From sequence record MK373778.1: a stretch of DNA of 64,000 bases; one strand, 5' to 3'. Shown one piece after another: positions 26,488-30,947 of the stretch (its first letter is position 1; every line of letters starts with the position of its first letter). The notes under the pieces are model-generated. The model was not told the origin of the DNA. It saw nothing but the letters and a program-made list of their open reading frames with translations, and searched no databases. The DNA is from Escherichia phage vB_EcoM_WFbE185. Both the position numbers and the translations under genes were made by a program.

Positions 26488-26791
26488 TTAGATAGATGTA
26501 GGCTCTAATTTTATTTTCATGAACTCGGCAAATTGTCTGGCAGTTTTTATGCCTTGTTCATGACATTCAAATGCATCATCACAGGGGCTATTTTTGTAAT
26601 GCTTTGCCATATACTTATAGAATTTTTCAGAATTCTCGACATTTTGAATTTCAAACAAAGTATATACGTTTTTAATACCTGATTCCATAAAGTTATCAAA
26701 ATATGGGTCAATATGTGCAGTACCAACGATAGGAGTTGTTGCTGCAAAAAAACCCCAGCATCGCTATGACAGCTATCGCTCTTAAGGCCAT
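26488..26791 (-). pseudogene. rI: Lysis-inhibition regulator rI, split by frameshift at a homopolymer
   Basis: ATG 26791 with AGGAGG SD gives MALRAIAVIAMLGFF then stops after 27 codons; the RI domain continues in the +1 frame after plus-strand A7 at 26746-26752. Confidence 0.6.
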
Positions 26792-27038: not shown

Positions 27039-27046
27039 TATTTATA
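27039..27046 (-). promoter_or_regulatory. Late promoter TATAAATA
   Basis: Plus tatttata immediately upstream of ORF 26804..27016. Confidence 0.55.
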
Positions 27047-27623
27047 ACAACCCTGTCAAATCGTTCCAATGCTTCCGGCATAATGACACATATCTATCGG
27101 TATCACCAATTTCAATTTGACTGCCATCTGTAATTGGAAGTCCGTCTTCCGTGACTCTAGCTACCATTGTGGCCTTTTTACCACAATGACAGACACCTTT
27201 AAGTTCAACAAGCTTATCGGCAATAGCCATTAATGCTTGAGAACCTTCAAATAGATTACCTTTAAAATCTGTTCGTAGTCCATATGCCATTACCGGCACA
27301 TTGTACACGTCAACAATACGACTAAGTTGATACACCTTTTCAGTAGTTAAGAACTGAGCTTCGTCAACAAATACACAGTGAATATCCTTTTGTGCTGCAG
27401 CCCATTTATAGAATTCAAAGATATCCATGTCTTTTGTAATTATATTGGCGTCCTTACGAATACCAATACGAGAGACTATTTCACCTTTTGAATCGCGAGT
27501 ATCAATAGCCGGTTTAAGAACTAATACACCCATGCCACGTTCTTTATAGTTATGTGCGGCAGTAAGTAATGAAGCAGACTTACCAGCGTTCATAGCAGCA
27601 TATGTAAAAATTAAACTAGCCAT
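27042..27623 (-). CDS. tk: Thymidine kinase
   Basis: 193 aa; P-loop AMNAGKS; Zn-ribbon CHCGKK...CRKH; resembles T4 Tk. Confidence 0.9.
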   Translation of the reverse strand: MASLIFTYAAMNAGKSASLLTAAHNYKERGMGVLVLKPAIDTRDSKGEIVSRIGIRKDANIITKDMDIFEFYKWAAAQKDIHCVFVDEAQFLTTEKVYQLSRIVDVYNVPVMAYGLRTDFKGNLFEGSQALMAIADKLVELKGVCHCGKKATMVARVTEDGLPITDGSQIEIGDTDRYVSLCRKHWNDLTGLL

Positions 27624-27632
27624 AAGAGTCCT

Positions 27633-27815
27633 TTATAGTGAATTCACATAGTCAATGAGTTCTTGTTCTTTCCTGTCAAATGATTCCATCAATGCTTGAT
27701 ATTCTTCGTCTGTTAAAGGAGCATATTCATCGTACGCATTGGTGGCTGCTTGCTCATCCAATAGGTCATGGATAAGTTCGAACAGTTTAGTTTTCTCTTC
27801 TTTAGTCAATTTCAT
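27633..27815 (-). CDS. Small acidic protein, 60 aa
   Basis: ORF track. Confidence 0.45.
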   Translation of the reverse strand: MKLTKEEKTKLFELIHDLLDEQAATNAYDEYAPLTDEEYQALMESFDRKEQELIDYVNSL

Positions 27816-28033
27816 TTAGGTTCACCTTCTTTAACGAAATCTGGGTAAGGGTAAAATCCTGAGTAAAACCCTTCACCTTTATGATTGCTACAACCTTTGT
27901 TCGAACAGTAACACCAATAATCAAAATCACAAGCCATTTCGTCATTGCATAAAGCAAAAACTACAGGCCATTCGCATTTTTCGCATTTAGCACCTGTAAG
28001 AATTTTTGTTTGGCTCATAACAATGGTTCCCAA
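27812..28033 (-). CDS. Cys-rich small protein, 73 aa
   Basis: ORF track; CEKCEW ... CYCSNKGC. Confidence 0.45.
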   Translation of the reverse strand: MGTIVMSQTKILTGAKCEKCEWPVVFALCNDEMACDFDYWCYCSNKGCSNHKGEGFYSGFYPYPDFVKEGEPK

Positions 28034-28512
28034 TCAACAATCACAATTTCTAGTTTAGTGGAATACGTATCTAAAATCTCTTCGATGACATCCCAGTTTC
28101 CACCACCAATACCTGCACCAATTCTTGGCATATAAATTACAGGCTTTGTTATCTTATTTTTTCCGAATTCATTTAATTCTATTATACAATTCATTAAAGC
28201 AGAGTACTCAAAATTAGGTCCCGGCTCAAACTGTGTATAAAGATTAAAGCAATAAGCTTTATGGGTCTTAAAATATTTTTCATAAACCGAATAAGTCCCG
28301 AGTTTAGACTTGTCTCCGAATTCGGTTTGAAGTTTATCGGCTTCTAAAATTTTTGGATAAGCCTTTGCCAATTGACCTGCTACACCGGCACCCATTGTAT
28401 GAAAACAATTGCACCCATGAGCAATATTATTACCTTTAGAAAACAGGGCGACAATATCGCCCTTGATATAGTTTTTAATCACTTGCTGCAAGTCCTCTAG
28501 TATAAGAGTCAA
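28015..28512 (-). CDS. Macro-domain protein (predicted ADP-ribose binding/hydrolase), start uncertain
   Basis: ORF track; IAHGCNCFHTMGAGVAGQ and YMPRIGAGIGGGNWDVIEEIL resemble the two macro-domain loops; plus 28510-28512 is caa so the listed start is TTG, likely true start GTG about 28482. Confidence 0.55.
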   Translation of the reverse strand: MTLILEDLQQVIKNYIKGDIVALFSKGNNIAHGCNCFHTMGAGVAGQLAKAYPKILEADKLQTEFGDKSKLGTYSVYEKYFKTHKAYCFNLYTQFEPGPNFEYSALMNCIIELNEFGKNKITKPVIYMPRIGAGIGGGNWDVIEEILDTYSTKLEIVIVDWEPLL

Positions 28513-28822
28513 CTAGGCGGTCTACCATAGAATTGCATGCTGCCTTATCTTTAGGCTCCGCCACCGAGCATTCTAATATTTGCCATTTTTTATGATATCG
28601 TTTAATTAAGGTAGACGCCTTGAACCTACTAGACGCCCCATCTTTTTCTCCGTCTTTATATGCGTATAACAATTTTTGTGAAAAATCTACTTTACACTCT
28701 TGACTTTTACCACAATAATCAGACGCCGTTCTGTTTGTATACTCCGTTACATCAGTATATGTAGTATTAGCAAGAGCGTTAAATGAAACCAAGCCAACTA
28801 TTAAAGCCAACATTTTGGTCAT
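28475..28822 (-). CDS. Secreted Cys-containing protein, 115 aa
   Basis: ORF track; signal peptide MTKMLALIVGLVSFNALA; four Cys. Confidence 0.5.
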   Translation of the reverse strand: MTKMLALIVGLVSFNALANTTYTDVTEYTNRTASDYCGKSQECKVDFSQKLLYAYKDGEKDGASSRFKASTLIKRYHKKWQILECSVAEPKDKAACNSMVDRLVDSYTRGLAASD

Positions 28823-29361
28823 TCTTTTATTTCCAGTAGTTTATTTGATTTAAGGTAATTAGCCTTTTCTAGGACTTCAGAAGCATATTTACTTCCGGCA
28901 CTTGTCTTCCATCCCGCATTATATGAGGATATAGCTTTTCTTATATCCCCGTTATGTATATTTAACCAATAAGAAAATTCGATATAAGCCCATCTGGCTG
29001 AATTAGACCGCTTAGATAGCATTTTCTTAATTTGGGCATCAGTCATATTATAACCAAGTTGGTTAATTCTTGCCCTCATTGTTGGTAGATAATTTTGGAA
29101 CATTCCATACGCATGGTGACCTTTCTTATCTTTAAGATTAATACCGGCCGATGATTCCTGCCATAGTATTGCGGCCATTATGTATCCAAGTCCTTTCTTA
29201 TGCATATTTTCATGCGTTTTAAATTTTCCATCCTTAGAAAACTGTTCCCCAAACTGATAAGCATAATTCAAGTTATCGAGTTGGACATTACTAAAAGTAT
29301 GCTCGGAGCTATGTGCTGATAATGAAAGAGCAAATAGACCAGCGAGTAGTGCTTTTCTCAT
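28819..29361 (-). CDS. Secreted lytic transglycosylase-like protein (SLT domain)
   Basis: ORF track 180 aa; signal peptide MRKALLAGLFALSLSAHS; motifs LWQESS, YGMFQ, SYNAG. Confidence 0.6.
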   Translation of the reverse strand: MRKALLAGLFALSLSAHSSEHTFSNVQLDNLNYAYQFGEQFSKDGKFKTHENMHKKGLGYIMAAILWQESSAGINLKDKKGHHAYGMFQNYLPTMRARINQLGYNMTDAQIKKMLSKRSNSARWAYIEFSYWLNIHNGDIRKAISSYNAGWKTSAGSKYASEVLEKANYLKSNKLLEIKE

Positions 29362-29369
29362 GTTTACCT

Positions 29370-29828
29370 CTAGATTTTAATCACTGCTTTAGAAGCTTTT
29401 CCTGGTAGTCGTTTACTGTTAATAATAGCCATTCTACATTGAAGAGTCTTCATTTTAAATGCTGGATTTTCGCGACAAACTGTAAGTCCTAACCAAAGAT
29501 TTCCGTCAGTTATTTCTAAACGGCCCGGGCGATATTCGACACCTTCGTCAAAATCTTCATCAACATCTGGACGTGCCGGCATTGATAAAAATTCTGCAAC
29601 TTCTTTAACATGATTTTTTACTTTATGAAATAATTCAAAAACGTAATTCTCATCTATTTCTCTCTGGATGGCACGATCTAAGAGATGTTGAGAATACTTG
29701 ATATGAAAGCCTGGTAGTCCAAGAGACTTTGCAGCATCTTTTATACTGGCATTTATTTTGCGGAACTCCGTTTCAAAGATTCGACGGAGTTTATTACGGC
29801 GGATAAAAACGTCTGAATTGATAGTCAT
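29370..29828 (-). CDS. regB: Endoribonuclease RegB
   Basis: ORF track 29370..29852; from MTINSDVFIRRNKLRR...LKYSQHLLDRAIQREIDE matches remembered T4 RegB. Confidence 0.85.
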   Translation of the reverse strand: MTINSDVFIRRNKLRRIFETEFRKINASIKDAAKSLGLPGFHIKYSQHLLDRAIQREIDENYVFELFHKVKNHVKEVAEFLSMPARPDVDEDFDEGVEYRPGRLEITDGNLWLGLTVCRENPAFKMKTLQCRMAIINSKRLPGKASKAVIKI

Positions 29829-29856
29829 TTTGATTTCTCCTCTAGTTGACAAGTCT

Positions 29857-30371: not shown

Positions 30372-30585
30372 AAGGAATTTCCTCATCGGTGGCAAGGTCG
30401 TATTCGACCAATTGGATAGGCTCATTAATACCATATCCACGTACAGTGATATCAGTTGCCGGATAGTTTCCAGTAATATCACCCATTCTAAATGATTCAA
30501 TGAATGATTGCTCGCCTGAGCAACTAAACCAGGCGGCAAAACATTTTAAAACATCTTCGGACCCTTCTATAATCAATTTAGCCAT
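30361..30585 (-). CDS. Hypothetical acidic protein, 74 aa
   Basis: ORF track. Confidence 0.45.
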   Translation of the reverse strand: MAKLIIEGSEDVLKCFAAWFSCSGEQSFIESFRMGDITGNYPATDITVRGYGINEPIQLVEYDLATDEEIPYVD

Positions 30586-30947
30586 TATAGACTCTCAGTA
30601 AAGGTACGAGCAATAACGTCACGCTGCTGTTCCGGAGTCAGAGAGTTAAAGCGAACTGCATAACCGGATACACGGATGGTCAACTGCGGATATTTTTCTG
30701 GATGCTTAACTGCATCTTCCAGAGTTTCACGACGCAGAACGTTAACGTTCAGGTGTTGACCACCTTCAATTTTAACTTTAGGTTGATGTTCAATTTCAAT
30801 TTCACGGGCATTCAAACCGTAGAAAATTTCCGGGTCTACAATAGCGTCTTCTTTAAAAGTCTTAGAGACAATAATCCGGGCCTGAGTACCGTCTTCAAAA
30901 TAAATAGTGCCTTTGTGTGCACCTTCAAGAATTTGATATGCTTTCAT
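30585..30947 (-). CDS. grcA: Autonomous glycyl-radical cofactor (GrcA/YfiD-like)
   Basis: 120 aa; C-terminal [60 protein letters not shown] with RVSGYAV glycyl-radical motif. Confidence 0.85.

Follow-up and report, generated by a model that had tools for sequence, protein, structure and literature searches.

A Mosigvirus orthologue of T4 tk.4 (adfM) encodes a free-standing macrodomain, a probable eraser of DarT2 marks on phage DNA

The macrodomain gene described here was found on the minus strand of a 64,000-nucleotide stretch of Escherichia phage vB_EcoM_WFbE185 (MK373778.1), the whole of which is referred to as the window. The window is from a Mosigvirus, an RB69-like T-even phage, and the gene is the Mosigvirus (RB69-group) orthologue of T4 tk.4, which was renamed adfM (anti-DarT factor, macrodomain). 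The encoded protein belongs to the ALC1/TARG1-like class and is a free-standing macrodomain. By orthology with T4 AdfM, it most probably acts as an orphan antitoxin-like hydrolase, erasing the marks made by DarT2 from phage DNA. This was considered highly probable rather than certain because the evidence for Mosigvirus was based on orthology, and because no enzyme assay of T4 AdfM/Tk.4 was found in the literature searched, which offered genetics and structural similarity. The gene has been annotated for two decades, and its role in defence evasion was published in 2025-2026.

The open reading frame on the minus strand (28015..28512) was originally predicted to encode 165 amino acids, a length counted from a TTG codon, which is the longest possible reading. 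The real start was almost certainly the GTG at 28482, and the protein had 155 amino acids. A non-ATG start near this position had also been predicted, and the comparison with related phages agreed with it. In a codon-level alignment, the GTG (28482..28480) stood opposite the T4 tk.4 ATG, and in T4 this ATG forms an ATGA overlap with the stop of vs. Upstream of it, a GAGGA was present, and T4 and phage a48 had the same GAGGA 11 nt before the ATG. In T4, an in-frame TAG was located directly upstream of the tk.4 ATG, and therefore the 10-codon extension to the TTG was not conserved. Furthermore, the same GTG occurred in three other Mosigvirus records (JK42, SA79RD, and FL31), and the annotations of JK42 and SA79RD start the gene there. 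The alignments of the relatives began at residue 11 of the 165-aa reading, and the gene-caller length was 155 aa, in agreement with the GTG start. The TTG at 28512 was thus ruled out as the start by the T4 TAG, the alignment of the relatives, the annotated starts, and the gene-caller lengths. At the other end, the TGA stop (28015..28017) overlapped the ATG of the next gene as ATGA, as read from the sequence. With start and stop overlaps at both ends, the macro gene was thus tightly coupled to both neighbours. The features of the locus are listed in Table 1.

Table 1. Coordinates of the macrodomain gene, its conserved motifs and its neighbours in the window
Feature	Position	Strand	Remarks
regB	29370..29852	-	Pfam REGB_T4, E = 1e-69
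vs.1	28819..29361	-	PHROG 600, weak SLT match
vs (valyl-tRNA synthetase modifier)	28475..28822	-	directly upstream of the macro gene; PHROG 1256, E = 1.8e-35
Shine-Dalgarno-like GAGGA	28493..28497	-	10 nt upstream of the GTG; read from the sequence
GTG start codon	28480..28482	-	within GTGATTAA; overlaps the vs TAA stop (28475..28477)
Macrodomain CDS	28015..28482	-	155 aa; GTG start, TGA stop; orthologue of T4 Tk.4/AdfM
Macro loop 1	28372..28425	-	IAHGCNCFHTMGAGVAGQ; H22, N25, G-x-G motif
NLYTQ motif with Q84	28231..28245	-	HMM and MAFFT alignments
Macro loop 2 (diphosphate-binding loop)	28072..28143	-	PVIYMPRIGAGIGGGNWDVIEEIL; P119, I121, G122, G124
Cys-rich Phage_zn_bind gene	27812..28018	-	directly downstream of the macro gene; Pfam PF23895, E = 4.6e-29
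DUF7438 gene	27633..27815	-	
tk	27042..27623	-	two genes downstream of the macro gene

The 2.9 kb surrounding the macro gene showed 98-99% identity to Mosigvirus genomes such as FL31 and JK42. The gene order regB, vs.1, vs, macro, small genes, tk was common to the window and T4, in which it reads regB, vs.1, vs, tk.4, tk.3, tk.2, tk.1, tk. Moreover, vs was annotated directly upstream of the macro gene in JK42, T4, a48, and Klebsiella phage EI, and the linkage of the two genes persisted as far as the last of these (52% identity). The gene had been described in the original prediction as lying next to tk and rI, which was not confirmed. The tk gene lies two genes downstream, and rI was ruled out as the upstream neighbour, the gene there being vs; rI itself was located beyond tk and rI.1, about 1.2 kb from the macro gene. 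The novelty was therefore overrated in that prediction, in which T4 tk.4 was not recognised and the neighbour was mislabelled as rI. Its description of the surroundings as a run of small secreted or Cys-rich proteins was roughly right, since the N-termini of Vs and Vs.1 resembled signal peptides on visual inspection of the sequence and the downstream gene encoded a Cys-rich Phage_zn_bind protein.

Compared with T4 Tk.4 (NP_049723), the protein was identical at 131 of 155 positions (85%), with 94% positives, no gaps, and an E value of 6e-105. Both proteins had 155 aa and carried H22, N25, Q84, and the G-x-G loops, and both genes occupied the slot between vs and the tk.x genes on the same strand, with a start overlapping the vs stop. 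They differed in the start codon (ATG in T4, GTG in the window) and in loop 2 by G127K, which reads GIGKGNW in T4 and GIGGGNW in the window. In addition, tk.3 of T4 was missing in the window between the macro and Zn-binding genes. The genetic demonstration of anti-DarTG2 activity, discussed below, was for T4 only. A homologue was encoded in 2800 phage records, and many records of Mosigvirus and Tequatrovirus named it 'macro domain protein' or 'Poa1p-like'. According to a published survey, macro domains were present in 41% of myoviruses (PMC9503650).

The assignment to the macro domain, which was the central claim of the original prediction, held by three independent routes, namely the profile search, the sequence comparison with solved macrodomains, and the predicted fold. 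The Pfam Macro model (PF01661) was matched at positions 2-117 of 118 with 28.2 bits (E = 1.9e-6), above its gathering score of 22 bits, and PHROG 335 was matched with an E value of 1e-66; together with the 2800 phage records that encode a homologue, these matches were far beyond chance. In a single-sequence search of solved structures, the E values were 1.8e-10 for BT1257, 1.4e-8 for yeast Poa1p, 6.8e-5 for SCO6735, about 7e-4 for TARG1, and 1e-3 for the DarG of T. aquaticus. With a 62-sequence family profile, they were 1.8e-16 for BT1257, 2.4e-16 for TARG1, 3.6e-14 for SCO6735, 1.2e-12 for Poa1p, and 4.1e-12 for the DarG of M. tuberculosis. An AlphaFold2 model built from the family alignment had a pLDDT of 94.7 and a pTM of 0.90, and the three-layer alpha/beta/alpha macro fold was present in this predicted structure. 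The model was compared with the PDB by Foldseek, a check that had been suggested with the original prediction. TARG1 (3.9e-9), Poa1p (2.5e-8), T. aquaticus DarG (3.6e-8), BT1257 (5.9e-8), M. tuberculosis DarG (3.3e-7), and SCO6735 (7e-7) were matched with a probability of 1.00 and TM values of about 0.7-0.8, and viral macrodomains came next. Among the PDB matches listed, the best 50 all had a probability of 1.00, and each was either a macrodomain or a serine hydrolase for whose design a macrodomain scaffold had been used.

The two loop peptides quoted in the original prediction, IAHGCNCFHTMGAGVAGQ and PVIYMPRIGAGIGGGNWDVIEEIL, were both present in the protein. They carried most of the family-invariant residues, namely H22, G23, N25, C26, G33, and A35 in loop 1 and P119, I121, G122, and G124 in loop 2, and ADP-ribose would most likely be bound through both of these conserved ligand-binding loops. 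Of the 120 homologues, 119 had N25 and 117 had H22, and the four loop-2 residues were found in 118, the remaining two being gapped there. The residue at position 84 was Gln in all 120 homologues in the MAFFT alignment. N25 is the equivalent of N22 in DarG and N27 in SCO6735. Q84 aligned with the catalytic Lys of DarG (K80), TARG1 (K84), and PhiKZ AdfM (K78), and also with the essential Gln85 of SCO6735. Moreover, the position of TARG1 D125 was Gly126 in the window protein and Gly or Ala across the phage family.

The role of the T4 gene in the escape from DarTG2 was reported in a preprint (bioRxiv 10.1101/2025.11.20.689424). There, a transposon-sequencing screen of T4 on a DarTG2-expressing host gave one significant hit, tk.4; a clean tk.4 knock-out sensitised T4 to DarTG2, and the gene was dispensable on E. 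coli K-12. The DarTG2 toxin ADP-ribosylates thymine in DNA. Its authors described a similarity to the macrodomain of DarG, renamed tk.4 as adfM, and proposed that ADP-ribose is enzymatically removed from DNA. A previous study showed that T4 without adfA and adfN was still resistant to DarTG2, so that a further anti-DarT factor was to be expected (PMC11825919). In addition, gp104 of PhiKZ, which was independently named AdfM, removed DarT2-made T-ADPr from an oligonucleotide in vitro, and N23 and K78 were its putative active-site residues (PMC13309987). The original prediction had offered two kinds of mark that such a protein could erase, and the one set by host defence was supported by the published deletion genetics for T4 tk.4, the 85%-identical orthologue. 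The RB69-group phages have inactive alleles of AdfA and AdfN (PMC11825919), and therefore the activity of the window allele is not to be assumed, though its sequence is intact.

In the proposed mechanism, thymine in single-stranded phage DNA would be ADP-ribosylated by the toxin DarT2 once the host DarTG2 system has released it. The phage macrodomain would bind the thymine-ADP-ribose mark through its two conserved loops and hydrolyse the base-ribose bond, and replication would continue. Chemically, the reaction would follow SCO6735, with Asn25 positioning Gln84 and Gln84 positioning the distal ribose for the attack of water, unlike the lysine type of DarG and TARG1.

It is to the SCO6735 type that the active-site pattern points. 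SCO6735 from Streptomyces coelicolor and BT1257 from Bacteroides (PDB 5E3B and 2FG1, respectively), the latter being the best PDB match by sequence, shared with the phage protein the H-x-C-N motif and the Gln at the position of DarG K80. The pattern of SCO6735 is H-V-C-N27 ... Q85, to which N25 and Q84 of the window protein correspond. SCO6735 cleaved thymine-linked ADP-ribose on DNA faster than DarG and rescued E. coli from DarT (PMC9411070). The cleavage of T-ADPr DNA was abolished by Q85A and nearly abolished by N27S, and a water-mediated mechanism was proposed in which the Gln positions the distal ribose (PMC9411070). As SCO6735 cleaves T-ADPr with the same Gln and Asn, the missing Lys was therefore no argument against a hydrolase activity of the phage protein. 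The identity to SCO6735 and BT1257 was about 25-28%, and both are cellular proteins, unlike the phage protein. The mobile loop of the SCO6735 subclass is five residues longer than that of DarG and TARG1, and this long loop was missing in the phage protein. The distance from Q84 to Y93 was 9 residues, as in TARG1, compared with 15 in BT1257, in which 6 residues were inserted when it was aligned with the profile of the phage family. Membership in the SCO6735/BT1257 subclass was rejected on account of the missing loop that defines it, despite the presence of the Gln and Asn. The phage protein was accordingly filed as one that may work like SCO6735, by analogy, without belonging to its subclass. 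Hydrolysis by a protein without the Lys that is essential in DarG is thus suggested by analogy with SCO6735, yet the extended mobile loop of SCO6735 is missing, which counts against it.

DarT2 might also be neutralised mainly without catalysis, through binding of the toxin or shielding of the ADP-ribosylated DNA, with the macrodomain as a reader or decoy. The catalytically dead variants SCO6735 Q85A, DarG K80A, and TARG1 K84A inhibited DarT in vitro, and SCO6735 was the strongest DarT inhibitor of the three (PMC9411070), so that partial protection by binding is possible; the catalytic Lys of DarG and TARG1 is also missing in the phage protein. However, the C-terminal domain by which DarG binds DarT is absent, and the residues required for hydrolysis of the SCO6735 type were invariant or nearly so in the 120 relatives. 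That Q84 never varies among them, and N25 hardly ever, speaks for selection on catalysis. Furthermore, the de-ADP-ribosylation by PhiKZ AdfM in vitro required its active-site Asn (PMC13309987). A mainly non-catalytic action was accordingly judged improbable, and hydrolysis of the thymine mark was retained as the preferred reading.

The relation to DarG was investigated in the same way. The protein shared the fold, at a TM of about 0.7, and the loop-1 Asn with the DarG of T. aquaticus (5M31/5M3E) and M. tuberculosis (5M3I), and the reversal of DarT2 thymine ADP-ribosylation has been proposed or shown for DarG and PhiKZ gp104 AdfM. It was different from both in that their catalytic Lys (K80/K78) was a Gln and their FPTK-x-HWR motif was replaced by NLYTQ. 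The macrodomain part of the DarG HMMs was matched, with an E value of 1.2e-8 for the PADLOC model (positions 4-145 of 329) and of 1.2e-7 for NCBIfam NF048014 (positions 4-146 of 338), where the 31.3 bits fell below the equivalog cut-off of 250 bits. The C-terminal DarT-binding domain was absent from the 155-aa protein, only the N-terminal part of the DarG models being matched. No darT gene was adjacent, the direct neighbours being vs and the Phage_zn_bind gene. A DarG proper was thus ruled out by the score, the C-terminal domain, the missing darT neighbour, and the missing Lys80 (FPTK). ICP1 AdfB and RB69 AdfA were ruled out as relatives, neither being a macrodomain.

The DarG HMM scores were 31-33 bits for the window protein and 133-138 bits for PhiKZ AdfM, and the two proteins had 20% identity. 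The unequal scores, the low identity, and the different active-site residues thus indicated that the two proteins named AdfM are separate lineages. With the invariant Gln at the position of the catalytic Lys, T-even AdfM is, as far as its sequence goes, a glutamine-type lineage separate from the lysine-type AdfM of PhiKZ. The split of the lineages and the replacement by Gln were seen directly. A wider proposal, which we regard as rather doubtful, is that T-even AdfM is a glutamine-type T-ADPr hydrolase that was acquired independently of PhiKZ AdfM and possibly has broader substrates. As in SCO6735, these might include uracil-linked ADP-ribose in RNA and other ADP-ribose marks, which is speculation by analogy. 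If the broader range were true, the reach of a single small enzyme would extend beyond DarTG2, for example to further ADP-ribosylating defences or to the products of the phage's own ADP-ribosyltransferases.

Human TARG1/OARD1 (4J5R) and yeast Poa1p (6LFR) were the top Foldseek matches and had the same size and topology. The short mobile loop was shared with TARG1, and the catalytic dyad was not, K84/D125 of TARG1 being Q84/G126 in the window protein. Poa1p is an ADP-ribose-1''-phosphate phosphatase, which the phage protein resembled in fold and sequence. The phage protein could correspondingly be an ADP-ribose-1''-phosphate phosphatase or an O-acetyl-ADP-ribose deacetylase that clears small ADP-ribose metabolites and takes no part in DNA repair. 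The RefSeq annotation of T4 tk.4 reads 'phosphatase; Tk.4; contains A1pp phosphatase motif', the label of PHROG 335 is 'phosphatase', and relatives are called 'O-acetyl-ADP-ribose deacetylase' by JGI. Moreover, Poa1p was the third-best PDB match by sequence (E = 1.4e-8), and its mutated residues H23 and S30 corresponded to H22 and T29. However, these names were derived from domain similarity and not from assays, and the activities may occur as side activities. The pattern of Asn and Gln in the active site was that of the DNA T-ADPr hydrolase SCO6735. In addition, we know of no need for the disposal of ADP-ribose-1''-phosphate in E. coli or in T-even infection. The sole phenotype reported for the T4 orthologue in the preprint was specific to DarTG2. 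A metabolite-clearing enzyme was thus considered an unlikely explanation, and the removal of DarT2 marks was preferred.

The other kind of mark, named first in the original prediction, was that made by the phage itself through Alt, ModA, and ModB, and nothing was found in support of this option. The enzyme would then erase or tune these marks on host proteins, or the RNAylation by ModB. T-even phages have three ADP-ribosyltransferases of their own. An arginine-specific macrodomain also exists in the literature (Legionella MavL), and macro domains co-occur with ADP-ribosyltransferases in myoviruses (PMC9503650). However, the residue modified by Alt, ModA, and ModB is arginine, which is not among the known substrates of ALC1/TARG1-class macrodomains, and no linkage to alt, modA, or modB was seen at the locus in the window. 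Furthermore, tk.4 was non-essential on K-12, and a defect was reported only on the DarTG2 host, according to the accessible part of the preprint. This explanation was considered very unlikely compared with the erasure of DarT2 marks.

The main value of these results is in correct annotation, as the T-even anti-DarTG2 factor was found to be present and intact in an RB69-group phage. This is relevant for the prediction of host range on DarTG2-carrying E. coli, and also for phage-therapy genomes, which often label the gene 'hypothetical' or 'phosphatase' or start it at the wrong codon. The sole point beyond the literature searched was that the two AdfM proteins differ in the active-site residue (Gln in T-even phages, Lys in PhiKZ and DarG); they also resemble DarG very unequally (about 32 bits compared with about 135 bits). 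The Gln-type active site therefore suggests SCO6735, and not DarG K80, as the mechanistic template for T4 AdfM.

Several related genomes differed at the macro gene. In FL31, the closest public genome (L005, 2218..2598), it was annotated as a 'Poa1p-like family protein' of 126 aa because the GTG start was missed, and the internal ATG that was used removed the first strands of the macro domain. In the mutant T4 clone T4_7t1 (OL964745.1; L002, 2073..2448), three deletions of 2 nt each, compared with reference T4, divided tk.4 into two ORFs labelled 'macro domain-containing', which would be consistent with tk.4 being dispensable where the host lacks DarTG2, or with artefacts of sequencing. The macro protein of a48 (L007, 601..1080) had only 58% overall identity to the window protein, and the first ~13 codons of its gene and the upstream end of vs were identical to T4, which suggests, at the level of sequence, a recombination junction inside the macro gene. 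In Acinetobacter phage vB_AbaM_B09_Aci05 (85973..86428), a macro homologue of 35% identity adjoined a nicotinamide phosphoribosyltransferase gene, which hints that macro domains may be connected with NAD+ salvage in other phages.

Regulatory elements were also searched for. A terminator-like hairpin, AGGGCGATATTGTCGCCCT, was located at 28445..28463 on the minus strand, in codons 7-13 of the macrodomain gene and just past the vs stop, with 8 bp and a dG of about -13 kcal/mol, followed by GUUUUCU. T4 and a48, whose DNA hardly differs from that of the window in this stretch in any case, had the identical hairpin, and Klebsiella phage EI lacked it. The hairpin could attenuate transcripts reading through from vs, or it could be a coincidence of the coding sequence. 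In the region, 5 terminator-like sites were found compared with 2.2 +/- 1.7 expected, without clear enrichment, and the 14 sigma-70-like promoter matches were at the chance level (14.8 expected).

Among the neighbouring genes, JK42 (L001, 2518..2730) and SA79RD (L006, 1318..1530) had a 213-nt gene between the macro and Zn-binding genes, in the slot of the 213-nt tk.3 of T4; it was absent from the window (28015..28018 junction) and from FL31. The gene for the lysis-inhibition antiholin rI (26488..26791, minus strand) was apparently frameshifted in the window. The ATG at 26791 was followed by 7 consecutive T, where JK42 and FL31 have 6, which led to a stop after 27 codons, and the remainder (MESGIK...KLEPTSI) formed a separate 66-aa ORF at 26488..26688. 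The window is either from a rapid-lysis (r) mutant or affected by a homopolymer sequencing error. In JK42, a 1-nt insertion in rI (GGCATTAAAA, compared with GGCATAAAA in the window and FL31) garbled the C-terminus. In addition, the minus strand encoded at 30585..30947 a GrcA-like autonomous glycyl-radical cofactor homologous to T4 vs.6, for which the annotation in T4, FL31, and JK42 is GrcA or pyruvate formate-lyase.
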